This document shows positions 1,834-59,423 of a stretch of DNA of 64,000 nt, piece after piece. Source of the DNA: a virus. The notes below the pieces were generated by a model. The model saw nothing but the letters and a program-made list of their open reading frames with translations, had not been told where the DNA came from and searched no databases. A program made the translations under genes and the position numbers. How positions within the stretch are numbered: the stretch's first letter is position 1; each line of letters begins with the position of its first letter. The stretch lies in the IMG/VR virus record IMGVR_UViG_3300045988_119573, positions 82,089 through 146,088 of that record. One strand, given 5' to 3'.

Positions 1834-2427
1834 TCACTCATTTTCATCGTGTTCTTCTGTCATGGACAGATTATCCGAAGTGCCTTTCCATAAGACCACA
1901 ACATTTCTTTCTAATGATTTTTGTACATCAACCACTCTCTGATTTGTTGATCCTGCCCACGGATAAGACATGTCTTTCAATTCGTCTACATACTGTCCGT
2001 CTACGAGGACATCTATGTAAGGAAGAATCTCAAGTCTGCAATCGTACATAAGATGGCTTGTTCTACGTCTTCGAGAGAACTCAGCTAAGTCCAAACCAAT
2101 ATCTTCTGCTTTATTCCCTGTATATAGCCAGATTTTTTTGTCTGGCATAAACTCTTTGACAAATTTACATATTGCAGAAACACCATCTCTATTCTCTTTT
2201 GCCAACGGTTCTCCACCAAGAATACTTAATCTTGTATATTGCGGATTAGTTAGTGGGCGTAACAATTCCAACACATCCCACGTTGTTAATTCTTTACCAC
2301 CATCAAAATCCCATGTTTCTTTATTAAAACAATTCTTACAATGGAAGTGACATCCTTGAACGAAGAGGGCTACGCCAAGCCCTTCTCCGTTGCTAATGTC
2401 CATTTTTCTTATTGAAGCATATCTCAA
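1834..2427 (-). CDS. nrdG: Anaerobic ribonucleotide reductase activating protein (radical SAM)
   Basis: CHFHCKNC (CxxxCxxC) cluster near the N-terminus; ~197 aa; start overlaps the nrdD stop. Confidence 0.85.
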   Translation of the reverse strand: MRYASIRKMDISNGEGLGVALFVQGCHFHCKNCFNKETWDFDGGKELTTWDVLELLRPLTNPQYTRLSILGGEPLAKENRDGVSAICKFVKEFMPDKKIWLYTGNKAEDIGLDLAEFSRRRRTSHLMYDCRLEILPYIDVLVDGQYVDELKDMSYPWAGSTNQRVVDVQKSLERNVVVLWKGTSDNLSMTEEHDENE

Positions 2428-2429
2428 AA

Positions 2430-3420
2430 CTATTCCTCCATACTATGATCATCTACATGAACATATCTGCTCTTAATCTCTGCCGTACGTCCTTGATTCC
2501 AGAACTGGGTGCCGACGTATCCACATGATCGTCTGGCAACATTCATCGTATTCTGATCTCTGTTACCACAATTTGGACATTCCCAGATTAATTCCCCATC
2601 AACATCAAGAATGCTAATTTCTCCATCATAACCACATTTCTGACAGTAATCACTCTTTGTATTTAACTCTGCATACATGATATGATCATAAATAAATTTC
2701 ATAATCTCAAGAACAATATCTGTATTCTTTGTCAAGTCTGCACATTCTACATAACTAATTGCACCGCCTGGACTTAATTCTTGAAATTTGCTTTCAATAT
2801 CAAGTTTTGTGAAAGGATCAATCTTTTCAAATACTGGGATATGATATGAATTTGTAATGTAATCACGATCCGTAATTCCTTCTACAATACCAAATCTTTT
2901 CTTTAAGCATTTTGCAAATTTATATGTAGTTGACTCGATTGGAGAGCCATACACACTGTATGCTAATCCTTCAGAATCTTTCCATTCATTACACTTATCG
3001 TTTAATCTCTGCATAACTTTTAAACCAAATTCCTGTTGAATAGAATGAGATTCGCCAGTCATGTATTTTACACATTCATATAACCCTGCATACCCAAGAG
3101 AAATCGTTGCATAACCATTTTCTAATAGCTTGTCAATTTTTTCTCCTTTCTTAAGTCTTGCAAAGCATCCATGCTGCCACAAAATAGGTGCAACATCAGA
3201 AGATGTCCCTTTTAATCTCTTGTACCTACATTTTAATGCCTTGTGACATAACTCTAATCTTTCATCTAAAATCTTCCAAAACGCTTCCTTGTCTTTCCCA
3301 GAAGACAAAGCTACATCTGGAAGATTGATTGTTACAACCCCCATATTGTATCTTCCGTAATATTTAGGTTTACCATTTTCATCTAAATATGGAGTTAAAA
3401 ATGATCTACACATGTTTATG
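2430..3420 (-). CDS. nrdD: Anaerobic ribonucleoside-triphosphate reductase, exon 3 (C-terminal part)
   Basis: CRSFLTPY..., NMGVVTINLPDVAL, C-terminal Zn ribbon CQKCGY...CPNCG and glycyl-radical motif RRSCGYVGT. No plausible start/RBS: the frame stays open upstream of the first Met. 5' boundary approximate. Confidence 0.8.
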
Positions 3421-3652
3421 ATATGTCGCCATACCCACTGACTAAATTATCTCTCAGAGTCCGTTACTCTCATCATTGAGCCGACCGCTTGGGGTAGGTG
3501 CTTATCTCCTACTCTACGCTGTTACACTCATCACAGCTAGTCGATACACCTTCTTATACAACTATATAAGCTTGGCACGGAATTATCTTAGGTCATCAGA
3601 TGTCTCCTCTCTAAGACTCACCCGTTAGCAATGTTAAACATTACACCCTTTA
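3421..3652 (-). ncRNA. Group I self-splicing intron 1 in nrdD (ORF-less, ~230 nt)
   Basis: Stops in all frames between two nrdD-homologous ORFs; GC-richer than flanks. Minus strand shows R-like GTATCGACTAGC and S-like GAGAGATAATTTAGTCAGTGGG (GACUA/UAGUC P7 pairing). Boundaries approximate. Confidence 0.6.
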
Positions 3653-4021
3653 AGCAAGGTTCAATCGGTTTATCCTGGGCTGTAGTTTACGCTTACCCAT
3701 GCACGGAAAACAGTTTCCATTTCCATTCGCATCAATCTTATTCTTTTTCATAATCTTTTCAGAAATGTAATCTGGAACCATTCTTTTAGCAGTACATTCT
3801 GCTGCTAATTTTGTTAAATACCAATACTCAGAATCCTCACGAATATTATCTTCTTCTAATACATACAGCAATTTAGGGAATGCGGGTGTAATGTAAACAC
3901 CGACTTCATTCTTTAATCCTTTAATTCTCTGCCGTAAGAACTCTTCAATCAGTAATGCTAATTCTTCTTTGTACTCTGTTGTTTCGTTCAAGTACATACA
4001 AACACTGAGAAATGGAGCTTG
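3653..4021 (-). CDS. nrdD: Anaerobic ribonucleoside-triphosphate reductase, exon 2
   Basis: (GQ)APFLSVCMYLNETT...NGNGNCFPCMGKRK is a middle NrdD segment. Frame open from 4021 (CAA) with no start codon; an in-frame TGA lies just upstream. Confidence 0.75.
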
Positions 4022-4430
4022 CACTGCTCCGAGTCAGACTATATCTTTACCCTCGTTATACGTTAGGTGAGAATATATAATTCTCAAAAGTAACTATATT
4101 ACTTTGTAGATGGCACTTCCCTACAATGAATTCCACATTATAGGTACAGATTTCATAGGCATATATTATTACTTAGCCTGTATATCTTAGTCGTTTGACC
4201 TTTATAAAAATTTCTCTTTATCCTTGGCACTGGATTGCTCTTATCCGTCCCAATGTTTGCAAATTATATATAGTATGATCAACTCTTTTGCTCGAAAGCA
4301 CCGATAAGAGTTCCCCAGTTAGCATAACTTCTATCACCATTTCCTATGATCCTAACCGTAAGTTATACACCCTAGATTTCTAGGTTCACCATCTGTTCAC
4401 TAACATATTTCTATGTTAGGCAGCCATTTG
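4022..4430 (-). ncRNA. Group I self-splicing intron 2 in nrdD (ORF-less, ~409 nt)
   Basis: Minus strand carries R element GGTCAAACGACTAAGATA and S element AAGATATAGTCTGACTCGGAGCAGTG at the 3' end (consensus R GUUCAACGACUA, S AAGAUAUAGUC). Exon 1 ends ...AACGGU, intron ends ...CAGUG, and the join gives in-frame ...NTNGQ|APFLSV... Confidence 0.75.
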
Positions 4431-5288
4431 ACCGTTTGTGTTGGTCATACTATTTACTTGATAGTTGAATGTCTGAACACTATCTTCGATTTCTTTCTTT
4501 AAATCTTCCTTAGCGTATTTTTCAACTAAATCTTCTGTAAAGCCACGTTTTCTATATTTATCAACATAAATATTATAACTATCTCTTACAAATGGGGCTA
4601 AATGTGTTAATGTAATTGTTGCACCGCCATATGTAGAAGATGTAACTGCTGTAACAATCTGCGTTGCAATTGTTGTTGCCGTGATTAATCTATGGGGTTT
4701 TTCAATCATTACCTCATTAACAACTGTGCCATTCTGTAGCATATCTTCAAGATTAATTAACTCGCAATTTGTAAGTGCTTTCTGCCCAAAATAATCCACA
4801 TCATGGAAATGCAAGATACCTGTATCATGAGCCTGTACGATTTCTGGTGGGAGTAAATATCTGCGAGTCATATCTTTGCACACAATACCTGCCATATAAT
4901 CTCTCTGTGTTGTTACAAGTTTTTCATTTTTATTAGAATTTTCAGTATTCCAATATTTACTGTCTCCACTAAGAAGATCTGAAATTTCTGCATCAATAGT
5001 ATTTTCATTCTCTCTCTGAAACTCTCGAACACTGCGATAACCTTCATATGCTTTTGCAGTTAATTCCTGCCCTTTCTCAACAAGCTTTTTGAATACCATT
5101 GCTTCAATTGTAGAAATGTCAATTTCTTCTGGTAATTTACTGCAATCATTTTCGATTTCTCTTGCAATCTGTTTTGCAATATTTTCCTTAATTAATCCAG
5201 ATCCATTTTTCATTGCTTTCATAATCGCTGTGTAAATTTTGGTCTTGTCGAAATCTACAACAGTACAATCTCTTTTAATTACTTTCAA
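4431..5288 (-). CDS. nrdD: Anaerobic ribonucleoside-triphosphate reductase, exon 1 (N-terminal ATP-cone part)
   Basis: MKVIKRDCTVVDFDKTKIYTAI (ATP cone); the track ORF runs 4 codons into the intron before a TAA. Confidence 0.8.
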
Positions 5289-5322: not shown

Positions 5323-5523
5323 TCATCTATATGTAACGCACCCGTCTCCTGCTTTCTTGCAGTTCAACGTATATCGTGCATCGTTACCATCACCATCAAT
5401 CTTTTTGGTTGATACGCTCTCAATTATCATGGTTTTACCTGTTTCTACATCTTTCACAAGTACCTCTTTTTCTATATGTAGTTTAGAAACTAAATTTCTA
5501 AGCTGATTAATTGTTCTGATCAA
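5323..5523 (-). CDS. Hypothetical small protein
   Basis: 66-aa ORF between nrdD and the kinase gene, overlapping the kinase ORF by 17 nt. Confidence 0.35.
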   Translation of the reverse strand: MIRTINQLRNLVSKLHIEKEVLVKDVETGKTMIIESVSTKKIDGDGNDARYTLNCKKAGDGCVTYR

Positions 5524-6097
5524 CTTCCTTTGTTGTCGCTCCTTCCGTGTCTCTAATCTGTCTTTTGAATCTCTCTAATTCAGCCATAATATTTAAACAA
5601 GTCATAGACAAACTTCCTTCATTATTAATAACTGCGTCGCATAAATCATAAGCTTCTTCAAAAGCAGATTCGTCTTTTTTCATTCTTTCATCAATTGCAT
5701 CACTTGTATCTCCACGATCTTTCATTCTCTGAATACGTGTAGAACTTGGTGTATCAATACATAATGCCAAGATATGTTTCTTATGATAATTTTCTTTTAA
5801 CTGTTTTAATCCTGGAACATCAACTACATATACGTCTGCATCATCACACTGACTTTCTGTAGCACAGTACCAATTGCCAGTGTAATGATTCTCTGCAACC
5901 TTGCCTGTAATTCTTGAATACTGGGCTAGATTTACATATGTATGATCATCAAGCTTATCTGTTCGCTTCTCTCTAGTGGTATATGATCGTAGATATTTCA
6001 GACCATAAATGTCTTCCAGATACTTCGCTGAGACACTTTTGCCTGCTCCAGATCGCCCCACCAGAGCGATTAAAACATTACTTTTATCTCCTACCAT
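5507..6097 (-). CDS. P-loop nucleoside monophosphate kinase (guanylate-kinase-like / dNMP kinase)
   Basis: Walker A LIALVGRSGAGKSVSAKYL and SYTTREKR...D..Y resembling the GMP-kinase S-x-TTR motif; sits in the nucleotide-metabolism module. Confidence 0.5.
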   Translation of the reverse strand: MVGDKSNVLIALVGRSGAGKSVSAKYLEDIYGLKYLRSYTTREKRTDKLDDHTYVNLAQYSRITGKVAENHYTGNWYCATESQCDDADVYVVDVPGLKQLKENYHKKHILALCIDTPSSTRIQRMKDRGDTSDAIDERMKKDESAFEEAYDLCDAVINNEGSLSMTCLNIMAELERFKRQIRDTEGATTKEVDQNN

Positions 6098-6099
6098 CT

Positions 6100-6230
6100 C
6101 TATAAGTCCTTTTCTAATTTCTTGATTCTTCTATTGATTTTTGTTACGATTTTGCCGTTATCTTTGCCTCTAGCGATTAAGACGGCTTTTCTATCCTTTA
6201 ATAAATTTAACTGATCTAATTTTGTCATAT
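6100..6230 (-). CDS. Putative small ORF (43 aa, MTKLDQLNLLKDRKAVLIARGKDNGK...)
   Basis: ATG with an AGGAG RBS about 11 nt upstream; TAG stop 2 nt before the kinase ATG; below the track's size cutoff. Confidence 0.25.
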
Positions 6231-6255
6231 ACTCATTTTCTCCTTAGGCTATATT

Positions 6256-6816
6256 TTAGTTTTCAGTTGCTGTTTCTGACGATTCCTCTACGACCTCAGC
6301 AGAATCATCATCTACATATTCAATATCTTCTTCTTTTACTTTTGTTGCAGGGTCGAGTCTTTCATAATCCTCTTCTGTGGCTGGCTCTGTTTTAACAGTT
6401 CCACATTTTTCGCAATAAGTTGTCCAATGATATCCATTCTCTTCATCATATGCAATTGTTTTTTCTGCCCACACATGATCACAGGTTTCATCTGCGTCAT
6501 CTGGGTATTCTGGTTCTGTATAATCTGCATCGTCTGTATCGTCTGCGGTAGAATTTTCAGTATTTTTTTCTTCTTCTGTTGTTGTCGATACATCATTTGT
6601 TGTATCTTTAGAATCTTCTTTGACGGCATTTTTCTTATTATTTTTCTGCTCTGTTGTGTTCTTTGTAGTTTCTGTAGTTGACTTACCTTCTGTTGTTGCA
6701 GAAACCTGTTTATCAGTGTTATTATTTAGTGTATCTGCATAAATAGTATATGCTGAAACGCATCCTACTGCTGTTAACATTAATGCTCCAGCGATTAATA
6801 ATTTTTTAATTCTCAT
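6256..6816 (-). CDS. Acidic Thr/Glu-rich lipoprotein (secreted)
   Basis: Signal peptide MRIKKLLIAGALMLTAVGC with an AVGC lipobox, followed by a low-complexity acidic region. Confidence 0.55.
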   Translation of the reverse strand: MRIKKLLIAGALMLTAVGCVSAYTIYADTLNNNTDKQVSATTEGKSTTETTKNTTEQKNNKKNAVKEDSKDTTNDVSTTTEEEKNTENSTADDTDDADYTEPEYPDDADETCDHVWAEKTIAYDEENGYHWTTYCEKCGTVKTEPATEEDYERLDPATKVKEEDIEYVDDDSAEVVEESSETATEN

Positions 6817-6838
6817 AATATATTCTCCTTTTAATCTA

Positions 6839-7048
6839 TCAATCCATGAACGATGTCACCACATAGAAGGCGATCGCCATTAATACAATTGTTACAATTA
6901 CTACTACTCCAATTGGTATTACAATATTTGTTATTATCCAAAACGCAAATACAAATACACCAACAGATATGAATGTTGCAAGAAACCAGATAATGGTCAG
7001 TACGATCATCGCCAAGAAAAATTTTAAGATTTTCTTTATGATATTCAA
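6839..7048 (-). CDS. Small membrane protein (2 TM helices)
   Basis: Hydrophobic 69-aa ORF; preferred over the overlapping 6831..7052 frame. Confidence 0.4.
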   Translation of the reverse strand: MNIIKKILKFFLAMIVLTIIWFLATFISVGVFVFAFWIITNIVIPIGVVVIVTIVLMAIAFYVVTSFMD

Positions 7049-7057
7049 TCACCTACC

Positions 7058-7897
7058 TTATGGCATTTCATTGTAAATTTTGCTAACATCATCTAATAAT
7101 TCTTTTGGCAAATATCTTTCTAAAAGCTCATTCGAATTATCAAGTGTTTTCTTATAGAAATCTTCTGCGATACCACCGCCAATAGCAGCAATCGTATCTG
7201 TGTCACATGGCAAAGACAATACATTTCTTAAGAATGATTCATAATCTTCGCTCTCTAAGAAACATCTGATTGCCACAGGAACACTATCTTGAACTGTCGC
7301 AGACCAAACATAATTCTTTCTATAATCATCGAGTGGTCGATCAACACCATATGTATATTGACTGGATGGATAACTTTTTAATGCATATTGATAAATTTCT
7401 TCTTTTGATTTACCCCATAGCGCCATAAAAGAACAGCCTGTTACAATCGATGCACCTTTGTAAGATTCTGAGTGGCGATGCGTTTTCTCACATGTCCATT
7501 GTGCTAAATCTATGTAATAACTCAATACGTCTGGACGATCAGCAAACCCATTAAAATACATTGTGATAGGCGAAATTCTCATGGCACATCCATTACCAAA
7601 GCTTTCATTAACACGACTACCATCATCGTGTAACCAGTCTTCGAACATTGCGCCATATCCCGTACCAGGATATTTCTTGCCATATTCTAAGTAGAACTCC
7701 CAAGGCTCTTTGATATGTTTGTGTTCATCGTCATCATCCAACAGCCACATTCCTGTTGCAATACTGAGAACTGTATCATCTGTAAATTTACATTTATCTG
7801 TAAACAATTCACAGTTCTTCCAATCTAAATCGTGAGGTCTGCGGAACTCATATTGAGAACCGCAAATATCTCCTAGAATCGCTCCAATTAAAGCCAT
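7058..7897 (-). CDS. ADP-ribosylglycohydrolase (ARH/DraG family)
   Basis: N-terminal GAILGDICGSQYEF and C-terminal DTDTIAAIGGGIAE, both signature metal-binding motifs of ADP-ribosyl-[protein/DNA] glycohydrolases. Confidence 0.8.
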   Translation of the reverse strand: MALIGAILGDICGSQYEFRRPHDLDWKNCELFTDKCKFTDDTVLSIATGMWLLDDDDEHKHIKEPWEFYLEYGKKYPGTGYGAMFEDWLHDDGSRVNESFGNGCAMRISPITMYFNGFADRPDVLSYYIDLAQWTCEKTHRHSESYKGASIVTGCSFMALWGKSKEEIYQYALKSYPSSQYTYGVDRPLDDYRKNYVWSATVQDSVPVAIRCFLESEDYESFLRNVLSLPCDTDTIAAIGGGIAEDFYKKTLDNSNELLERYLPKELLDDVSKIYNEMP

Positions 7898-7905
7898 TTA
7901 ATCAC

Positions 7906-8133
7906 CTACCTGTTAAAGATGTTTTCTAAAATTGTAAGAATTAGTGCGATAATCCATTTTGTTTTCGTTGGAACAATTAGCGGATTTACCGCAACAAAAT
8001 GTAACAACCAAATAAACAGATTTACAATTGCAAAGTTGACAGCAATTACGACCATTAATCCTAAGATTGTTCCTAAGATTGTTCCTGCATGATATTTGTC
8101 TTCAACAAATAGTAAAGTTAATAATTTCTTCAT
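7906..8133 (-). CDS. Small membrane protein
   Basis: 75-aa ORF with two predicted TM segments. Confidence 0.4.
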   Translation of the reverse strand: MKKLLTLLFVEDKYHAGTILGTILGLMVVIAVNFAIVNLFIWLLHFVAVNPLIVPTKTKWIIALILTILENIFNR

Positions 8134-8165
8134 CTGTTATTCCTTTCATCAAAGATTAATTTTAT

Positions 8166-8429
8166 CTATTCTACAATCATCCAGTCTTCAGCCAACATAT
8201 CTGTCTGACTTGCAAGCCAAGGAACTACGTTACCCTGTGCTGTTTTCATTGCAATATAAGCACCATATTCGACTAATCCGTCTTTGTTTACAATGCTTTT
8301 AGCAATATCTGTGCATGGCGCATAAGCGCCTGCTGGAACATAATATAAAAACATACCTTTCCCATTCCAACCTTTTCTTGCAACTTTTCTTTTATCTTTC
8401 ATTGCATCAATTGCTGTTCCAAAATCCAT
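8166..8429 (-). CDS. DUF2829-family protein, Tad2-like (candidate Thoeris/cyclic-nucleotide signal sponge)
   Basis: RKGWNGKGMFLYY and PWLASQTDMLAEDWMIVE match the DUF2829 signature; 87 aa, the typical size. Confidence 0.6.
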   Translation of the reverse strand: MDFGTAIDAMKDKRKVARKGWNGKGMFLYYVPAGAYAPCTDIAKSIVNKDGLVEYGAYIAMKTAQGNVVPWLASQTDMLAEDWMIVE

Positions 8430-8442
8430 AATAAATCCTCCT

Positions 8443-8706
8443 TTATTCTTTATTGTATGTGTATTTTACATAACTCCCTTTGCAGCTTACATTCGCCAAA
8501 TCTTTTGACTTCCTCTGTTCTTCTTCTTTTCTAATTTTTTCCAAAAGATAATCTGTTTTATCACTACATATTTTCTTATCTTCTCTAGTACACTTACCGT
8601 AAATATCACATTTTGTACATTTCGTCGCTATAAACTTAAATGCCTGCTGTCGATTAAAGTTTGTAACATCAATAAGTTTACCTATCATACTTTTCACTCC
8701 AACCAA
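8443..8706 (-). CDS. Cys-rich hypothetical protein
   Basis: 87-aa ORF with several Cys/CxxC-like motifs. Confidence 0.4.
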   Translation of the reverse strand: MVGVKSMIGKLIDVTNFNRQQAFKFIATKCTKCDIYGKCTREDKKICSDKTDYLLEKIRKEEEQRKSKDLANVSCKGSYVKYTYNKE

Positions 8707-9446
8707 TCATTGTCAATATAATAGAAACTATACGTTAGACCGCCAGTTAAGATAATCCAAAAAATCCAGAATATTGCTTTCAAAACTTCTCCACTCGACT
8801 TATATGACTCAACCGTTTTATGTAAATTTGACTTATTTAAATCACAAGTTGTCATAGTGTTATTTTTTAGTTTTGTGTAAACAGTTCCCTTAACTGGTTT
8901 TGCTTCCATACCATAGTATTCATACCTGACACGAGCAGAATGATAAATTCTTTTTAGGTAATGACTTCCTATGAAATCAATCTTATCTTCCTTGAATTTT
9001 TTGCCTGCAAATTTAATCTGTTTACAAGTCTTACTTTCTCTCCACATGTCATCCCACGAATACCAAACTCTCTTTCTGTAATGGACTTTTCCTTTACTGC
9101 CTTTTACTCTTTCAATTTTTTCATGTCTGCGATACTCTTGTCGGACTTTTCTGACATAATAATACTTGCCGCCAATTTCTTTGTATGTAACTGTGTCTAC
9201 AGGTTCTAACTTCCCATAAACAAAAGCGTTACCTACATTGGTTTCCATACCATATTGAAAAACATCATCATTTTTTATCTTAAGGGCGTGATTGTATTCT
9301 TCATTTTTATCAAGGATGGAATTATCAATATTACTACTGATAACGATTCCAAACACAAGCATGACTGCGATCAATGTTACACTCGCTAAGATTTCCCTTG
9401 GAGTTATCTCATAATTACCAAAATTCAATCCTTTGTGTTGCTTCAT
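8694..9446 (-). CDS. Hypothetical membrane protein
   Basis: N- and C-terminal hydrophobic segments; 250 aa. Confidence 0.45.
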   Translation of the reverse strand: MKQHKGLNFGNYEITPREILASVTLIAVMLVFGIVISSNIDNSILDKNEEYNHALKIKNDDVFQYGMETNVGNAFVYGKLEPVDTVTYKEIGGKYYYVRKVRQEYRRHEKIERVKGSKGKVHYRKRVWYSWDDMWRESKTCKQIKFAGKKFKEDKIDFIGSHYLKRIYHSARVRYEYYGMEAKPVKGTVYTKLKNNTMTTCDLNKSNLHKTVESYKSSGEVLKAIFWIFWIILTGGLTYSFYYIDNDWLE

Positions 9447-9449
9447 ATA

Positions 9450-10010
9450 TTACTCTCCAAATAAATGCTGAGGTGCAGTTTCGGGAGCATCCTTATATTC
9501 TAAATAAGTATAGTTCTTTATTTCATATCCAAGATTATTTAAGAAAATTCGTGTTGGAAATTTCTTTACATATCTGTTATATTCTTTAATCTGCTGATTA
9601 TAGTTACTGCGATATTCGGCAATTAAATTCTCTGTGACAGATAATTCGTTCATTAACCTTTTATAGTTCTTATCCGCCTTGAGTTCTGGATAAGATTCTG
9701 TAACTGCTGCAATTGCTGTGCTTGCATTTTCAACAGTTCCTTTAGAACTACGTCCTTTAACGATTTCTTTAAGTGTATTTGCCTCATGTTTATCATAAGA
9801 TTTCACACAATCTACCAAGTTATAAATCAGATCAACCCTACGTTTCTCTTGTACATTAATGTCAGATTTTGCTTTATCAACCTGTTCTTCTAATGAAATT
9901 GCATGGTTCTGCGAACTCTGAACCCCAAATGTGCAGGCTAGAAATACCGCCACAACTCCTACTAGAATGATTACTGGAATCTTCCATACAGTGTTTTTCT
10001 CTTTACTCAT
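9450..10010 (-). CDS. lemA: LemA-family membrane protein
   Basis: N-terminal TM followed by EEQVDKAKSDINVQEKRRVDLIYNLVDCVKSYDKHE, typical of LemA. Confidence 0.65.
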   Translation of the reverse strand: MSKEKNTVWKIPVIILVGVVAVFLACTFGVQSSQNHAISLEEQVDKAKSDINVQEKRRVDLIYNLVDCVKSYDKHEANTLKEIVKGRSSKGTVENASTAIAAVTESYPELKADKNYKRLMNELSVTENLIAEYRSNYNQQIKEYNRYVKKFPTRIFLNNLGYEIKNYTYLEYKDAPETAPQHLFGE

Positions 10011-10012
10011 AT

Positions 10013-11998
10013 TTAATTTTCTCCCTTCAGAATTTTAATCAGTCCATCTTCGTCAATGATCGGAATACCCAATTGCTGTGCTTTCTTGTTCTTACTGCTT
10101 GTGGAATTCACATCATTGTTCACAAGATAATTCGTATTTGTGGATACAGATCCTGCGACTTTGCCACCTCTGGACTCAATTTCATCCTTGATAGCATTAC
10201 GATTGGCAAACTTATTTACTTTACCAGTCACAACAAAAGTCATTCCCGTAAGATCAACAGCAGATTCTTTCTTGCTTTCTGGCATTTCAAATTCAAGTTC
10301 TTCGGCTAATTTCTCAACCATTTCAAGGTTTTCTTTGAAATAATCATCCATTGACAATGAAGTATTGATACCAATACCATCAATATGTCCAAAATATTTT
10401 CTCTTTTTGATTCTTTCGATAAACACATCATATGGATTTTCGTTATTCGATAGAGAAATCTTATCAATAAGCTTGCAAATATCCTTTGCCGTTGACTTCC
10501 CAACAAGTTCAATGCCAAGTGCTGTTACGAAATTAACCAGTTTACATCTGCGACTTTCCTCGATACTATTTAATAAGGAAGAAACACTTTTTGCACCAAA
10601 TCCATCAAGGTTCTTCATCTCAGTTTTATGCTCTGCTAAATTATAAATATCTGTATAATCTTTTAGCCATCCAAGATCAATAAATCTTTTCAGAGTTGCT
10701 TCGGATAAACCTTGAATATTCATTGCATCTCTGGAAACAAAGTTTACAAACTTGCTTAATAGCTTTGCCTTGCAATCAGGATTCATGCATTTCAGAACCT
10801 TACTGCCATTCTCGTTGATGATTTTTGCTGCGCCACCGCAGGTTGGACAAGTATCTGGAATCTTAAATGTATTGCTTCTTGTCAGATTATCGTGTACTTT
10901 TGGGATTACCATGTTGCTTCGATAAACCTGAATCGTATCACCTGCACCAAGTTCCAATCCTTCAATATAACTTACATTATGTAATGTAGCTCTTGTAGTT
11001 TCTGCACCATCAAGATCAACTGGATCGAATACTGCGACTGGATTAATCAATCCTGTGCGAGATGTATTCCATTCAATATCTCTGATCGTTGTTTCGTAGA
11101 GGTCGTCGATCCACTTTAACGCCATCATATTTAATGGATGATGTCCTGTTGTTCCAAGTGATTTACCATACTGATAATCGTTATAAGTAAAAATCAAACC
11201 ATCAACAGGATATTCATATGCCTCTGGATCAAATTTCTCAATATATTCTTCGACATTATCTCGATTAACAATCTGATGTTCTACAACGTCAAATCCCTGC
11301 TCTGCAAGATATTTAAAACTATCAGCAATACTTGACATTTCTTCTTCAGATACGCCATCAATTTTGACTAACTCAAATGCTTTGTAAGCAAGTTTTCTTT
11401 CCTTTGCTACATTCGCATCTAACTGCCTGATTGTACCTGCTGCCAGATTTCTTGCATTCTTGTATTTACCATGCAACGCTTCATTGATTTTCTGGAAATT
11501 TTCATAACTAATAACTGATTCGCCACGTATCTCAATACTACGCTTGTCAGGAATCTCAAGAGGTAAATTGAAAATCATACGTGCTGTATGAGTCACATCT
11601 TCTCCAATTTCGCCATTTCCCCTTGTAATTGCTTGTTTTAAGCGTCCTTTTTCGTACCTTAGTACCACCGTCAATCCGTCAAGTTTCCACGATAAAACAC
11701 CAATTTTATCCGCAAGAAATTTTTTGACCTCATTGACATCCTTCGTCTTCTGAGCTGATAACATTGGACGTGTATGCTTTACTTTAGCCAAAGAATCAAT
11801 TATAAATCCTTGAACGTGGTGGATGGGCGAATTATTCAAAACAACGCCAGAATCTCTCTCAAGTCGTTCTAAAGCAGTGCATAAATCGTCAAATTCTTTA
11901 TCTGAAATGATCGGATTATCCTCTGCGTAATACGCATATGAAGAATCCTTGATTCTGTCGATCAAGACATTCATTTCTTTCACATATTCAGTTTTCAT
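10013..11998 (-). CDS. ligA: NAD-dependent DNA ligase
   Basis: Adenylation motif SWKLDG (KxDG), ~661 aa, Zn finger CPTCGG...CMNPDC, C-terminal BRCT domain (MTFVVTGKVNKFANR...). Confidence 0.9.
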   Translation of the reverse strand: MKTEYVKEMNVLIDRIKDSSYAYYAEDNPIISDKEFDDLCTALERLERDSGVVLNNSPIHHVQGFIIDSLAKVKHTRPMLSAQKTKDVNEVKKFLADKIGVLSWKLDGLTVVLRYEKGRLKQAITRGNGEIGEDVTHTARMIFNLPLEIPDKRSIEIRGESVISYENFQKINEALHGKYKNARNLAAGTIRQLDANVAKERKLAYKAFELVKIDGVSEEEMSSIADSFKYLAEQGFDVVEHQIVNRDNVEEYIEKFDPEAYEYPVDGLIFTYNDYQYGKSLGTTGHHPLNMMALKWIDDLYETTIRDIEWNTSRTGLINPVAVFDPVDLDGAETTRATLHNVSYIEGLELGAGDTIQVYRSNMVIPKVHDNLTRSNTFKIPDTCPTCGGAAKIINENGSKVLKCMNPDCKAKLLSKFVNFVSRDAMNIQGLSEATLKRFIDLGWLKDYTDIYNLAEHKTEMKNLDGFGAKSVSSLLNSIEESRRCKLVNFVTALGIELVGKSTAKDICKLIDKISLSNNENPYDVFIERIKKRKYFGHIDGIGINTSLSMDDYFKENLEMVEKLAEELEFEMPESKKESAVDLTGMTFVVTGKVNKFANRNAIKDEIESRGGKVAGSVSTNTNYLVNNDVNSTSSKNKKAQQLGIPIIDEDGLIKILKGEN

Positions 11999-35724: not shown

Positions 35725-36678
35725 TCACACTCCTAACACATATTTCTCACTTCTAAATCCAGCTGCATTCGGATGACCGCCACCACCATATTTCACAGCA
35801 AGCTCATACACATTTACTTTATCCTGTTCTGCGGATCGCAACTGATATTCCCACATACTTCCATTGAACGAAAAACCAATGAACATATCATATTTAGAAG
35901 CATCAATAGATTCAAAGAAATCAGAATTGATTAATGCTCGGTTGATTGCATAGACTTTATGTCCCTCAAATATGGTTTCAAAACCATATGCTCTAAGATA
36001 TTGTTCTGCATTTGCTGCTAAATACTCAATAATTGATAAGCCATCTGCTATCATATCACCAATAATTTTTGCTGCTTCATAAATTCCTTGATCTTTATTT
36101 AACGTGTTTAGCAATGGACTTAACGCATCAAAATCATACGATTCAAATGCATAGTGAAATGCTTTTACGAATTGTTTTGACGTTTCACCAAAATAAAATG
36201 TATCCCACATGGCTGTATATTCTGCCAGTTTTGGATAATCTGCTTTATATTTATATATATTGAGTAATCTTTTTACATTTTTCTCATCCGTCCTCTCAAT
36301 TTGCTCCCAATTTTCATCACACATATATTTAAAATATAACCATGTCAAATTCGCTCCTGAAATACCCGCTCCAGTAATTCTGATTCCTTTTACATCACAC
36401 TTGAAATCTTTATACGCTTCAATCGTAGACTGATGATGGTCGATCCAAAATACATTCTTTGTAATACTGAGCAACTGCCACATCTCTTCTGGCTCAATAC
36501 TGTAGTCTACAATAAACACAAATTCATCCTGCTCAATGTCATGAAACGGGAATTTCATACCGTAATTAATTTTTCGGAAGTCCTCTGGTTCAAATGCTAA
36601 ACCTCGCTGTTCACAAGCTTTTCTGACGTAGAATCCAGACACGATTCCGTCTTGATCAACATGATAAAAACACTTCAT
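35725..36678 (-). CDS. DHH/DHHA1 phosphoesterase (NrnA-like nanoRNase / pAp or cyclic-nucleotide phosphodiesterase family)
   Basis: HVDQDGIVSG (motif I/II), FVFIVDYS, WIDHHQ (DHH), C-terminal GGGGHPNAAGF (DHHA1 GGGH..AAG). Confidence 0.7.
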   Translation of the reverse strand: MKCFYHVDQDGIVSGFYVRKACEQRGLAFEPEDFRKINYGMKFPFHDIEQDEFVFIVDYSIEPEEMWQLLSITKNVFWIDHHQSTIEAYKDFKCDVKGIRITGAGISGANLTWLYFKYMCDENWEQIERTDEKNVKRLLNIYKYKADYPKLAEYTAMWDTFYFGETSKQFVKAFHYAFESYDFDALSPLLNTLNKDQGIYEAAKIIGDMIADGLSIIEYLAANAEQYLRAYGFETIFEGHKVYAINRALINSDFFESIDASKYDMFIGFSFNGSMWEYQLRSAEQDKVNVYELAVKYGGGGHPNAAGFRSEKYVLGV

Positions 36679-36962
36679 TATTTTTCCTCCTTTATCTGCT
36701 CACCTTTATTAATTGACTCAACATATATTTCCCAGTCATCTGCATATACATCTTCCGCAAGAGGTATCCAAACTTCTGCGTTTTCTTTGTCAAATAAAAA
36801 AATAATTGAATCTGGCTTATATTCACCCATATCATTACACTCAAAATAAACATTAGTTAATTCTGACGAATAAATTTTCAAATACTTTTCCTTTCCCCAA
36901 ATGCCTCTTCTTATAGTAGTTTTGTCTTTTTTTATTGCAGTCATTGCTTTTATAAAATTCAA
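36678..36962 (-). CDS. Hypothetical protein
   Basis: 94-aa ORF. Confidence 0.4.
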   Translation of the reverse strand: MNFIKAMTAIKKDKTTIRRGIWGKEKYLKIYSSELTNVYFECNDMGEYKPDSIIFLFDKENAEVWIPLAEDVYADDWEIYVESINKGEQIKEEK

Positions 36963-36970
36963 TTAATTAC

Positions 36971-37282
36971 TCACCTCTTCCTTTTACTGTTAAAATCCCA
37001 TCCTTGCTCAACCCAATCATTTGCGAAAATATCCTCTTGTGTAGGCAACCATCCCAATGTTATAACTCCATTTTGGTCTCTACATAAGAGTGGTTTCATT
37101 TTATATTTTTTATCAAATGGAATAATCTCATTTAATTCTTCTTCGCACATCATAAACACATAATCATAAGTTGTTCGTGTCTTCTTCCACGAACTACGAC
37201 GATACAATTGTCTTGGATTAATTTCCATATTTTGCATCATCATTTCAAACGACATTCCTTGTTTCTTTTTTGCCATTGGCAT
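36971..37282 (-). CDS. Hypothetical protein
   Basis: 103-aa ORF. Confidence 0.4.
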   Translation of the reverse strand: MPMAKKKQGMSFEMMMQNMEINPRQLYRRSSWKKTRTTYDYVFMMCEEELNEIIPFDKKYKMKPLLCRDQNGVITLGWLPTQEDIFANDWVEQGWDFNSKRKR

Positions 37283-56787: not shown

Positions 56788-57237
56788 CTAGGATGCCATT
56801 GCATTCATGTACGATAACATGCCGTTTTGTATTAAAATGCCATGTCCTATTTTTAACATTAAAGATAGATCAGATATTCTTCCCCAATACTCTAAAAGAT
56901 TATTCTTTGGAATTGTTCTTCCTTGCTCTAAATACACCTGTGATACCATTTTTAATCCATTACTGGTATTTGGATAAATGGTTACATGTGTCGGTATCCA
57001 GTTCCTTAATTTTTTTGTAATTGGATACACGTTAATCTCTGTGCTCGTATTATTACAAATATTATTAGAATATACGATGACTGGTCTTTTCCCATGCAAG
57101 ATATGACTACCTTCAATTTTCGGCAAATCTGCAAAATATATTCCCCAAACTTGAGGATTTTGATATTTGCCATATACATATTCTTTTCTTTTTCTGTTAT
57201 CGTTTCCTTTTCTTTCTTTGTTAGTATATCCGTTCAT
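56788..57237 (-). CDS. PemK/MazF-fold domain protein (toxin-like), start revised
   Basis: GIYFADLPKIEGSHILHGKRPVIVYSNNICNNTSTEINVYPITKK resembles MazF/PemK (GDI..V.F....G.E..G.RP.VV.S.D..N.....V.V.PITS). The track start lies inside the predicted -10; internal ATG (MNGYTNK) has a GAGGGA RBS. Confidence 0.45.
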   Translation of the reverse strand: MNGYTNKERKGNDNRKRKEYVYGKYQNPQVWGIYFADLPKIEGSHILHGKRPVIVYSNNICNNTSTEINVYPITKKLRNWIPTHVTIYPNTSNGLKMVSQVYLEQGRTIPKNNLLEYWGRISDLSLMLKIGHGILIQNGMLSYMNAMAS

Positions 57238-57287
57238 TTTTACGTCCCTCAACTTTCCCCAGTTGCATTTTTTGTTTTCATGAATTA

Positions 57288-57345
57288 AATATACCATACT
57301 TTTTGCACCCTGTCAATAGGTGCAAGAAAGAAAGTTAATTTTTGT
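57288..57345 (-). promoter_or_regulatory. Promoter TTGACA-17-TATATT with a 23-bp palindrome over the -35 (copy 2 of the repeated element)
   Basis: Minus strand AAAAATTAACTTTCTTTCTTGCACCTATTGACAGGGTGCAAAAGTATGGTATATT; compare copy 1 at 12751..12797. Confidence 0.5.
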
Positions 57346-57729: not shown

Positions 57730-58476
57730 CTATAAAATCCTAATAATTTGTTCGTAAATTGCAATCGCATTATCTTCTGGAAAGTTCTGGTTCACATGCA
57801 TATGCCCAAAGAACCATTTTTGATAAATCACTTTGTCTTTTATTTGCTGTAAATAATCCGTTAACTTGTCAGATTTGTACACTCCTGATCCTTGATCCAT
57901 TTGTCTTAAAACAGATGTGTATGGACTATGTGTAATAACGTAATCTACTTGGAAGTCATTTTTCTCTAAATTCATCACACCTTCTGCCATCTCTTTATCA
58001 GATGGCAATTCTTCTTTCCACCAGCTCACATGATTAATCCTAAACATTTTGTCATAATCTCTGTACCATTCATTAATTCTTGGATCGTCTGGCTCTAAAA
58101 TTCCATCTTGCACATCATGGGAACTGGCACCGCCAAATGTAAAGAATTTCTTTCCTTGAATTTCAAACACCTGTCCACGCATAAGATGAAATACAGAGTC
58201 TTTGATCTTGTGAATCTTTCCGCCACACCATTTCTCTACAGGATATTGATATAAGCGATCATAATTTTCATGGTTCCCACATACAAACAAAGTAGTAAAT
58301 GGTTTGTTGTCCAACCATTCCAGATTATGTCGTTCTTCTTTTGTGTCATGCCACAATCCAAAATCTCCGCAAATGATCACGTAATCATCTTTAGTTAACT
58401 CTACTCCTTCTGGGAAAGAATGACTGTTTAATCGAGTCATCCAATCCCCATGCGTATCTCCTGTTACAAATATCAT
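57730..58476 (-). CDS. Calcineurin-like metallophosphoesterase
   Basis: GDTHGD, GDFG, GNHE, GHMH motifs in canonical order. Confidence 0.75.
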   Translation of the reverse strand: MIFVTGDTHGDWMTRLNSHSFPEGVELTKDDYVIICGDFGLWHDTKEERHNLEWLDNKPFTTLFVCGNHENYDRLYQYPVEKWCGGKIHKIKDSVFHLMRGQVFEIQGKKFFTFGGASSHDVQDGILEPDDPRINEWYRDYDKMFRINHVSWWKEELPSDKEMAEGVMNLEKNDFQVDYVITHSPYTSVLRQMDQGSGVYKSDKLTDYLQQIKDKVIYQKWFFGHMHVNQNFPEDNAIAIYEQIIRIL

Positions 58477-59423
58477 AAAATAACTCCTTCCAGCAGCTCT
58501 TTTAGTGCCTGCATATTGTCCTCATGTACCCTATCATTTTGATCTGCATCCTCCTTACCAGTCTCATAAGCACACTTGATAATCTCCATAACTCTATCAT
58601 AACTCACATTAATAACATTTTCCTTTAATCCGTTAAATGCTCCGCTGATAATATTCTTGTACGTCTGAGCAATATCATCAAATAACACATGAGTTTCCTC
58701 TTCTGTAATTGTAGCATATAAAAACGTCATTGCAGGACTACTATGGTTCAATAATCGCATAAGTGTATACAATACATTCTGATCATCTTTATGATCAACA
58801 AGTGTCCAATACACAAAGTTCTTTCGTAGTGTATGTGTACCAATGTTATCCTCAATTCCAACTGCTTTAGCACCTTTTTTAACAAAGTCTAAAGCATTTG
58901 CTTCTGTCATGTGTCCTGATCCAGATTTACATGTTCCGAAAACATAATCATCCATTGGCACTTCGCCATCAATCTTGACATCATATTTAGTTCCTGCGAC
59001 AGCTTCAAAGAAAATATCCACTGCTTCGGTTACTAAGTCGTTAAAGTATACAGTTCTAAATTTCTTTGTTTTCTTTTCCTGCTTACGAGTCTTATCTTCC
59101 AATAAATCGCCCCATTTGAGTCTAACAATATCAGAGATACGATATGCTGTATTGTTTCCAACTGTAACCAAAAGATTATTTCTGGCAGCTACATATCGTT
59201 TGTACTCTGTGTACGATTTATCAATCTGGTCTCTAAAATATGCATTAAAGGCTGCAAATTGTTTTCTGTCTTTGATCGGATACACTAAAGATGATACGCC
59301 TTTTTGTTTGTTAGATCGAGTCCATTTAGGACTTCCATCCTTACGTCTTTTAATCTTTGTTTCAGATTCTTCTGCGTTATTATTGTTTACTGTTTCAATA
59401 ACTTCAAACTGTGTTGCTGCCAT
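58473..59423 (-). CDS. int: Tyrosine site-specific recombinase / integrase
   Basis: RISDIVRLKWGDL (Arg box), HTLRKNF, LLNHSSPAMTFLYAT (H...Y box II). Confidence 0.75.
   Translation of the reverse strand: MAATQFEVIETVNNNNAEESETKIKRRKDGSPKWTRSNKQKGVSSLVYPIKDRKQFAAFNAYFRDQIDKSYTEYKRYVAARNNLLVTVGNNTAYRISDIVRLKWGDLLEDKTRKQEKKTKKFRTVYFNDLVTEAVDIFFEAVAGTKYDVKIDGEVPMDDYVFGTCKSGSGHMTEANALDFVKKGAKAVGIEDNIGTHTLRKNFVYWTLVDHKDDQNVLYTLMRLLNHSSPAMTFLYATITEEETHVLFDDIAQTYKNIISGAFNGLKENVINVSYDRVMEIIKCAYETGKEDADQNDRVHEDNMQALKELLEGVIL

Follow-up and report, generated by a model that had tools for sequence, protein, structure and literature searches.

The stretch of DNA analysed here, hereafter the window, comprises 64,000 nucleotides of a phage genome (positions 82,089 to 146,088 of IMG/VR record IMGVR_UViG_3300045988_119573), and this study concerns four genes at positions 6839-8429 of it. 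They are consecutive and co-directional, all on the minus strand, and the interval runs from the stop of a 69-amino-acid (aa) open reading frame (ORF) at 6839 to the start of an 87-aa ORF at 8429. In the order of transcription, they encode an 87-aa, single-domain, head-less Tad2-family protein (PF11195/DUF2829) predicted to act as a sponge (8166..8429), a small membrane protein of 75 aa with two predicted transmembrane helices (TM75; 7906..8133), a 279-aa ADP-ribosylglycohydrolase of a short ARH3-like form whose binuclear metal site is intact (ARH, PF03747; 7058..7897), and a second small membrane protein of 69 aa with a TTG start and three hydrophobic segments (TM69; 6839..7048). The Tad2-like protein was assigned from its Pfam match, PDB homologues, pocket residues, Shine-Dalgarno (SD) sequence, and ratio of nonsynonymous to synonymous substitution rates (dN/dS); ARH from its Pfam and phrog_6572 matches, an AlphaFold2 model, and Foldseek; and the two membrane proteins from ORF, hydropathy, and dN/dS, together with an SD sequence for TM69. 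A first-pass annotation had described the interval as a candidate anti-defence islet. Its coordinates and the peptide motifs it quoted are all correct; of the two small membrane proteins which it placed between ARH and the Tad2-like protein, TM75 does lie there, but TM69 lies downstream of ARH.

The genes are separated by 32 base pairs (bp; Tad2-TM75), 8 bp (TM75-ARH), and 9 bp (ARH-TM69), and every one of them has its own SD sequence, with a strong one (AAAGGAGG) preceding the Tad2 gene and an identical one (GGTAGGTGAT) preceding both ARH and TM69. Purifying selection acts on all four: in pairwise comparisons with the alleles of related phages, dN/dS was 0.03-0.12 for Tad2, 0.07-0.11 for ARH, 0.09-0.23 for TM75, and 0.14-0.37 for TM69. 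By these values, all four ORFs, including the two small hydrophobic ones, are real genes. No terminator-like site was found in 5400-10100, promoter and terminator scans giving no excess over shuffled controls, and Rfam detected no structured RNA in the region of the four genes. None of the four proteins matched a PADLOC defence model.

Judged from its sequence, the 87-aa protein is a genuine member of the Tad2 family. It matches PF11195, now named 'Tad2-like', over profile positions 1-73 of 73 with 97.2 bits (E 8.1e-28; cut-off 25), so that the DUF2829 hit anticipated in the first-pass annotation was indeed obtained, and its PDB matches are ModTad2 (8V3E/9EIB; E 5e-25, the best), SptTad2 (9e-19), HgmTad2/AcrIIA7 (3e-18), and SPO1 Tad2 (5e-14). 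Scores so far past chance, like those of ARH given below, make the family assignments of both proteins unambiguous, and the PHROG matches agree with them. The protein contains WNGKGMF and WLASQTDMLAEDW, with a GWNGKG loop at residues 20-25 and the segment WLASQTD at residues 71-77. HgmTad2, SptTad2, and SPO1 Tad2 are sponges for 3'- and 2'-cyclic ADP-ribose (3'cADPR/2'cADPR) that inhibit type I Thoeris. The 87-aa protein shares with them the domain, the size class, the GWNG loop, and a phage origin, and its WLASQTD segment is identical to that of HgmTad2 and SptTad2, but its identity to the three is only 43-47% and it has no N-terminal head domain. Furthermore, where the HgmTad2-type proteins that bind cyclic dinucleotides have a long insertion (35-41 aa) between beta2 and beta5, that of the 87-aa protein is short. 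The cyclic-dinucleotide pocket of HgmTad2 (R31, K46, S47, F70, and N85) is correspondingly absent: V stands in place of R31, nothing corresponds to K46, S47, and N85, and only P32 is kept.

The pocket for glycocyclic ADP-ribose (gcADPR) is, by sequence, far better preserved. In HgmTad2, gcADPR is contacted by W21, N22, G23, M76, A78, T82, V84, W87, L88, S90, T92, and D93 (PMC10680739). Ten of these 12 contacts are kept in the 87-aa protein (W21, N22, G23, M61, V69, W71, L72, S74, T76, and D77 in its own numbering), as compared to six in ModTad2 and seven in SPO1 Tad2, and the canonical gcADPR-type pattern, a GWNG loop plus a W-L/V-x-S-Q-T-D segment, is present. According to published tests, all the tested proteins with WLASQTD (HgmTad2, Tad2_70, Tad2_71, and Tad2_83) inhibit type I Thoeris (Table S2, Hadary et al., bioRxiv 2025.08.24.671296), and so do the proteins with WLASQAD (Tad2_82) and WVPSQTD (SPO1). 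The type II inhibitors confirmed in the same screen carry WTPSVSD (ModTad2), WTPSIGD (Tad2_68), and WVPSSSD (Tad2_76), although the type I plaque entry for Tad2_68 is ambiguous (bioRxiv 2025.08.24.671296). Because the 87-aa protein carries WLASQTD, 3'cADPR (1''-3' gcADPR), and thereby type I Thoeris, is predicted to be its most likely main ligand and target, on the grounds of residue conservation and the tests of its homologues. The first-pass proposal of a gcADPR-type sponge thus agrees with the pocket that the protein appears to possess.

Several observations weigh against this prediction. The identity of the 87-aa protein to tested Tad2 proteins is flat, 47-53%, whatever their specificity, and it is because overall identity is uninformative in this respect that the pocket residues were compared instead. 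Of the sponge homologues tested, about one quarter failed to inhibit any of the seven systems. Tad2_71, also with WLASQTD, blocks Thoeris types I, II, and IV, which means that this segment does not exclude other ligands, and Tad2_70, again with WLASQTD, blocks Pycsar too (bioRxiv 2025.08.24.671296). Finally, the best PDB match overall is ModTad2, which binds histidine-ADP-ribose (His-ADPR) and cyclic UMP (cUMP). Taken at face value, this top match would contradict the gcADPR proposal, although the pocket residues favour the gcADPR type.

ModTad2, from a Myroides odoratus prophage, is a His-ADPR sponge that counters type II Thoeris, and its second pocket binds cUMP and cyclic CMP (cCMP), the signals of Pycsar (bioRxiv 2025.08.24.671296). 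It does not inhibit type I Thoeris. The 87-aa protein might therefore be a sponge of the ModTad2 type, which sequesters His-ADPR and/or cUMP/cCMP instead of, or besides, 3'cADPR. The two proteins have in common their length and a short YYVPxGxY insertion, located in the region that forms the second pocket of ModTad2, and 44 of 85 residues are identical (52% pairwise, 49% in the multiple alignment); the broader inhibition by Tad2_71 and Tad2_70 points in the same direction. However, the pocket segment reads WLASQTD in the 87-aa protein and WTPSVSD in ModTad2, and the W-T/V-P-S-x-S/G-D segment common to ModTad2, Tad2_68, and Tad2_76 is not present; only 6 of the 12 gcADPR contacts are found in ModTad2 as against 10 in the 87-aa protein; and Tad2_68, although of the same architecture, failed to block Pycsar. 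We therefore consider a ModTad2-type specificity unlikely, if worth keeping in view, and prefer to describe the 87-aa protein as what appears to be a ModTad2-like scaffold with an HgmTad2-type pocket. With this combination, one could usefully ask if the seven-residue W-x-x-S-x-x-D segment suffices to set type I versus type II Thoeris specificity.

A quite different function is suggested by the relationship of the 87-aa protein to AcrIIA7/HgmTad2 (E 3e-18). Once its head domain is removed, AcrIIA7 is reported to bind tracrRNA and to inhibit SpyCas9 in vitro (PMC13133391, 2026), and the 87-aa protein is naturally head-less, so that a head-less Tad2-like tetramer could be an anti-CRISPR of this type rather than a nucleotide sponge. 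But another group found no anti-CRISPR activity for HgmTad2 or its homologues, either in vitro or in vivo (PMC10680739), and the 87-aa protein, with an identity to HgmTad2 of just 47%, is missing the greater part of the long insertion, which makes this reading very unlikely. As a sponge for 3'cADPR, the 87-aa protein would form a homotetramer, by homology to the tetrameric Tad2 structures, and would bind the signal made by Thoeris proteins with a domain of the Toll/interleukin-1 receptor (TIR) type in two pockets at protomer interfaces, each combining the GWNG loop and the WLASQTD segment. Capture of the signal would keep the Thoeris effector from being activated.

Two more PF11195 proteins are encoded in tandem elsewhere in the window, on the minus strand (36678-36962, 94 aa, 46.3 bits; 36971-37282, 103 aa, 34.2 bits). 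Both score higher than the gathering threshold, have no GWNG loop, and carry divergent pocket segments (WIPLAED and WLPTQED). Together with the 87-aa protein, they bring the number of Tad2-like proteins encoded in the window to three. The tandem genes are adjoined by a gene for a 317-aa protein with weak DHH/DHHA1 phosphoesterase matches (35725-36678, minus strand).

To place the four genes in a wider setting, window proteins and the proteins of related phages were mapped onto related loci. The relatives are about 50 IMG/VR contigs, 80-169 kb in length and drawn for the most part from a single large set of samples, whose ARH proteins show 82-100% identity; they are represented only by IMG/VR contigs, as megablast of 5500-10100 against 50,697 phage records gave no match. 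The four genes lie between two conserved anchors, both on the minus strand, namely the gene for an NAD-dependent DNA ligase on the left (ligA; 661-aa ORF, 10013..11998; ligase domains are recorded by Pfam on its 92%-identical orthologue in L220) and the gene for a guanylate-kinase-like nucleotide kinase on the right (gk; 5507..6097), which is followed by a split NrdD gene. Among the 44 loci that span ligA to gk, there are at least 23 gene orders. The left part of the slot holds either LemA + phrog_3886, as in the window (17/50), or a VG64-like gene, which DUF6275 genes may accompany. The Tad2 gene is present in 47 of 50 relatives and absent from three. Sequestin (PF21825), found in 8/50 loci, follows Tad2 or replaces it, standing alone in L008 and L048; neither of the two sponges is present in L044. 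Exactly between Tad2 and TM75, 16/50 loci (for example, L014 at 2218-4755) carry a 2.5 kb cassette with genes for an SNF2-family helicase (494 aa) and an N6/N4 DNA methyltransferase (350 aa); it is absent from the window, between 8133 and 8166, and occurs also in the more distant L222 and in L263. The right part consists of TM75-ARH-TM69, an optional lipoprotein gene (31/50), a gene for a 42-aa protein (49/50), and gk.

As sampling centred on ARH would be biased towards loci with this gene, the family was sampled again with gk as an ARH-independent anchor. ARH was found in 47 of the 48 gk-anchored loci that span ligA-gk; the exception, L263, has neither TM75 nor ARH and keeps TM69. In more distant phages with ligA...gk/NrdD synteny, where ARH identity is 47-75% and that of ligA falls to as low as 53%, the slot contains Sequestin (L220), a long Tad2-like gene with Sequestin and the methyltransferase/SNF2 cassette (L222), a 229-aa Tad2-like gene (L226), or, in L225 with an identical ARH protein, none of these. 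For Sequestin as for Tad2, the action as a sponge for TIR-made signals has been validated experimentally (bioRxiv 2025.07.12.664507), and the recurrence of the two in the slot justifies the label of an anti-defence hot-spot. The slot is an accessory anti-defence hot-spot, with conserved flanks, variable content, and recurrent validated anti-defence families. N4-like phages have a comparable hot-spot with Tad2, Tad3, Acb4, and Sequestin (bioRxiv 2026.06.04.730250). In both, the flanking replication genes are conserved, the content varies strongly, and Tad2 and Sequestin recur, but the present one belongs to a large Clostridia-type phage lineage, has ligA and gk/NrdD as anchors, and contains a near-fixed ARH gene.

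Taking these results together, the explanation we favour, with a probability of roughly 0.6 for the whole, is that the four genes do not make up a single system but would be cassettes gained and lost independently within an accessory counter-defence hot-spot reaching from ligA to gk/NrdD, in which the Tad2-like protein is a 3'cADPR sponge, ARH is an active enzyme, and no role is assigned to the two membrane proteins. The anti-defence islet of the first-pass annotation is thereby borne out for the sponge, through its family, its 10/12 pocket, and its swapping in the hot-spot; for ARH, no evidence of an anti-defence role was found. The Tad2 gene is a further member of a well-studied family and ARH a further member of a known enzyme family, so that there is no departure from known kinds, and the result is a solid annotation with a testable hypothesis. 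If the predictions hold, the locus would represent a further natural hot-spot of sponges, in large gut Clostridia phages, which experiments on defence and anti-defence have covered poorly.

The other variable genes of the hot-spot in the window, all on the minus strand, lie on both sides of the four genes. The upstream cassette (8443..10010) encodes an 87-aa Cys-rich protein (8443-8706), the phrog_3886 membrane protein (8694-9446), and the LemA-family protein (9450-10010). The downstream part (6100..6816) encodes a variable lipoprotein-like protein of 186 aa (6256-6816), which is the optional lipoprotein mentioned above, and the conserved 42-aa protein (6100-6228).

As for the two small membrane proteins, TM75 is found in 48 of 50 relatives and TM69 in 49 of 50. 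TM75 had no significant family in Pfam, PHROG, NCBIfam, and PADLOC scans, and no homologues of known function were found for either protein. We considered the possibility that they are obligate partners of ARH and rejected it, because, in distant loci, the neighbours of ARH are soluble Cys-rich proteins, the 54%-identical TM75 homologue of L220 is not adjacent to ARH, and L263 keeps TM69 without ARH.

The assignment of ARH to its family, proposed in the first-pass annotation, is confirmed by a PF03747 match of 101.7 bits (E 7.9e-29; cut-off 26.2) over profile positions 2-275 of 287 and by a match to phrog_6572 (E 7e-36). The protein contains GAILGDICGSQYEF and DTDTIAAIGGGIAE. An AlphaFold2 model built with 30 homologues reached a predicted local distance difference test score of 94 and a predicted template modelling score of 0.93, and it has the all-helical ARH fold; the best Foldseek matches were ARH3 structures (E 3e-10, probability 1.0, template modelling score 0.74), followed by archaeal and Thermus ARHs. 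D10, E17, T39, D40, D41, H140, H142, E144, D232, D234, and T235 are invariant across the 30 homologues, as are G101-N102-G103 and R107 across the family, and T39-D40-D41 and D232-x-D234-T235 align to T76/D77/D78 and D314/D316/T317 of ARH3. Residues 1-31 are outside this alignment, and E17 is what we take to be the counterpart of E41, the catalytic glutamate of ARH3. ARH3 (ADPRHL2/ADPRS) is a eukaryotic hydrolase of serine-linked ADP-ribose, poly(ADP-ribose), and O-acetyl-ADP-ribose. ARH shares with it the all-helical fold, the GDxxGSxxE glutamate, and the T-D-D and D-x-D-T motifs of the binuclear metal site, but identity is only about 22%, ARH is about 60-70 residues shorter (279 versus roughly 350 aa), and it belongs to a separate short bacterial subfamily. 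The same fold is found in the uncharacterised prokaryotic ARHs MJ1187 and T. thermophilus TTHA1187-like 2CWC. Given the intact active-site residues, ARH is very probably active, presumably as a catalytically competent, Mg2+-dependent, ARH3-like ADP-ribosylhydrolase which would free ADP-ribose from some ADP-ribosyl conjugate during infection.

More specific identities were examined as well. Tri1 and DraG, bacterial hydrolases of arginine-linked ADP-ribose which are immunity or regulatory partners of ADP-ribosyltransferases, belong to the same Pfam family as ARH, but the corresponding NCBIfam equivalogs gave only 22.3 bits (Tri1; cut-off 490) and 21.8 bits (DraG; cut-off 337), and ARH was rejected as either. 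No ADP-ribosyltransferase or toxin partner of ARH is among the matches listed for the window proteins, nor was one found beside 80 bacterial homologues. It was also rejected as a macrodomain or NADAR protein, since the Pfam scan gave PF03747 only and the fold is that of ARH. This bears on the suggestion in the first-pass annotation that ARH reverses DarT-type ADP-ribosylation of phage DNA. ARH is a phage-encoded ADP-ribosyl hydrolase, and phage erasers of DarT marks do exist (AdfN), but the known erasers are macrodomains (DarG2) and NADAR proteins (DarG1 and AdfN), to which the ARH fold is unrelated (PMC11825919). No NADAR or Macro family was found for ARH in the Pfam scan. ARH-family enzymes are not known to remove base-linked ADP-ribose from DNA. 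The suggestion that ARH acts on DarT marks was consequently given up as highly improbable.

The distribution of ARH extends far beyond the hot-spot. It has about 737 related protein clusters, and a 259-aa form with approximately 50% identity occurs in other phage and prophage regions as well as in plain chromosomal neighbourhoods. A scan of cellular genomes, with one genome per species, gave at least 575 matching stretches in species-representative genomes of many phyla, the best matches (53% and 50% identity) being in Lachnospiraceae. Among the best 80 loci of these, the commonest neighbours are a Macro-domain protein, in 10 loci, followed by a vWA-like protein in 7, NrtR in 5, and Nudix proteins of other kinds in 3, and no ADP-ribosyltransferase recurs as a neighbour. 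From this distribution and these neighbours, ARH may be a general hydrolase of ADP-ribose conjugates in NAD and ADP-ribose metabolism that phages have captured repeatedly; the ARH of the window would be a capture from the widespread bacterial short-ARH family, with its nearest members in Lachnospiraceae. Short ARHs recur as accessory genes in many large phages of the gut and in hundreds of bacterial species.

Two side observations were made in these comparisons. In bacteria, the short-ARH family (L139-L218) is repeatedly located beside a Macro-domain protein of about 380 aa (10/80) and an NrtR-type Nudix regulator (5/80), an adjacency that suggests a pair for processing ADP-ribose conjugates not previously characterised. 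In phages, three (L331, L335, and L355; ARH 50-53%) of the 30 ARH phages that are not otherwise related have the LemA + phrog_3886 pair immediately next to ARH, and this pair looks like a mobile two-gene module.

What ARH does during infection can be considered in three ways, and the likelihoods we attach to them are rough and need not sum to one. Its most likely defence-related role is to erase ADP-ribosylation imposed on phage or host macromolecules in infection, although the substrate and the link to defence would follow from the fold and the hot-spot position only. This role is ranked first because ARH enzymes typically act on protein or polymer conjugates, and viral ARG domains have been argued to prefer macromolecular conjugates (Iyer/Aravind survey, PMC9503650). 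An anti-defence role of ARH is nevertheless only a guess, amounting to guilt by location, and the cellular homologues in housekeeping or NAD-metabolism contexts count against it.

The same contexts raise the possibility that ARH is metabolic or regulatory and unrelated to immunity, either recycling ADP-ribose conjugates or O-acetyl-ADP-ribose or reversing the action of a phage ADP-ribosyltransferase encoded elsewhere in the genome. The bacterial family is repeatedly found beside Macro-domain proteins, NrtR, which is an ADP-ribose-responsive NAD regulator, or Nudix proteins, or in plain biosynthetic neighbourhoods; the phage gene itself lies between NAD-dependent ligase and nucleotide-metabolism genes (gk and NrdD); and ARH is near-core in the phage family (47/48), unlike the swapping sponges. 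On the other hand, no ADP-ribosyltransferase, Sir2, Nudix, or NAD-salvage gene is among the matches listed for the approximately 90 proteins of the window, which covers 64 kb of a genome of about 160 kb. In addition, ARH can be lost, as in L263, and it lies inside the variable zone and outside the conserved replication block. A purely metabolic role is accordingly regarded as tentative and somewhat unlikely.

The third possibility is that ARH destroys the signal that the sponge captures, so that the two would form a two-layer anti-Thoeris module. ARH would hydrolyse the ribose-ribose O-glycosidic bond of 3'cADPR/2'cADPR, or the His-ADPR linkage, to yield inactive ADP-ribose. ARH3 cleaves ribose-ribose O-glycosidic bonds in poly(ADP-ribose), and since ARH has an ARH3-like fold and active site, cleavage of TIR-made signals would be chemically plausible. 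There is also a precedent in XopQ, a pathogen protein of another fold which cleaves 2'cADPR (bioRxiv 2026.06.15.732069). ARH is located 270 bp from Tad2, and it keeps its slot while the sponges (Tad2, Sequestin, and the long Tad2) are exchanged, down to 47% ARH identity. If this were correct, ARH would be the first ARH-fold phage enzyme directed against nucleotide immune signalling, converting 3'cADPR, 2'cADPR, N7-cADPR, or His-ADPR to inert ADP-ribose as a constant enzymatic layer, with interchangeable sponges as the second layer.

However, no Tad2 or Sequestin match was found within 6 kb of ARH in any of 30 other large IMG/VR phages outside the clade (ARH 49-54% identity), nor near the ARH homologue of MT835469 (6-9 kb), and ARH was not found within 5 kb of Tad2 homologues in other phages (L068-L130). 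The absence of a nearby sponge in the 30 ARH phages and in MT835469 indicates that the adjacency of ARH and sponge is a feature of the hot-spot of one clade and not a general coupling. Moreover, ARH remains where both sponges are absent (L044), homologues with about 50% identity are encoded in the chromosomes of many phyla in non-defence contexts, and the preference argued for viral ARG domains is for macromolecular conjugates. The known anti-Thoeris proteins are either sponges (Tad1, Tad2, Sequestin, Lockin, and TadIV-1) or proteins that bind TIR proteins or effectors (Tad3-Tad8), and no paper in the literature collection that we searched describes an ARH-fold anti-defence or signal-cleaving enzyme. 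We therefore hold both the destruction of TIR-made signals by ARH and the novelty that would come with it to be quite improbable. A functional pairing of ARH with Tad2 was likewise rejected, because the 2.5 kb insert parts them in 16/50 loci, Tad2 is absent from three, and the two were not found together in the other phages just named. Should the substrate of ARH turn out to be a TIR-derived signal or a mark placed by a defence toxin, it would represent a new enzyme class in phage counter-defence.

The genome to which the window belongs is most likely that of a phage of about 150-170 kb infecting a gut member of Clostridia. The window has a G+C content of about 33-36%, with essentially all genes on the minus strand, and encodes a DNA polymerase III alpha subunit (DnaE) closest (42%) to those of the C. 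difficile phages phiCD211 and phiCDIF1296T and the C. botulinum c-st phage, together with a RecD2-like helicase, the split NrdD with NrdG, and sigma factors. The host assignment is based on the DnaE similarity, the strong SD sites, and the nearest cellular ARH homologues being in Lachnospiraceae.

Several other features of the window were observed, all on the minus strand. It encodes a TnpB/Cas12f-like protein (OrfB_IS605 + TNB, 543 aa; 38568-40199), a protein with a MazF/PemK-like toxin domain (169 aa; 56788-57297), and a tyrosine recombinase (316 aa; 58473-59423), which, along with the similarity to phiCD211 and c-st, suggest a temperate or plasmid-like lifestyle. NrdD (anaerobic ribonucleotide reductase) is split into three ORFs within 2430-5288 (4416-5288, 3650-4024, and 2430-3413), and a LAGLIDADG endonuclease family match falls in this section of the window too. 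No intron model of Rfam scored as high as the gathering cut-off. The N-terminal piece of NrdD occurs in two allele classes among the relatives, with about 97% versus 60-63% identity. Finally, an Rfam tRNA match at 45367-45504 (46.4 bits, E 1e-6), which ARAGORN did not report, is 138 nucleotides in length, far longer than normal, and could represent a tRNA gene that contains an intron or is unusual in some other way.

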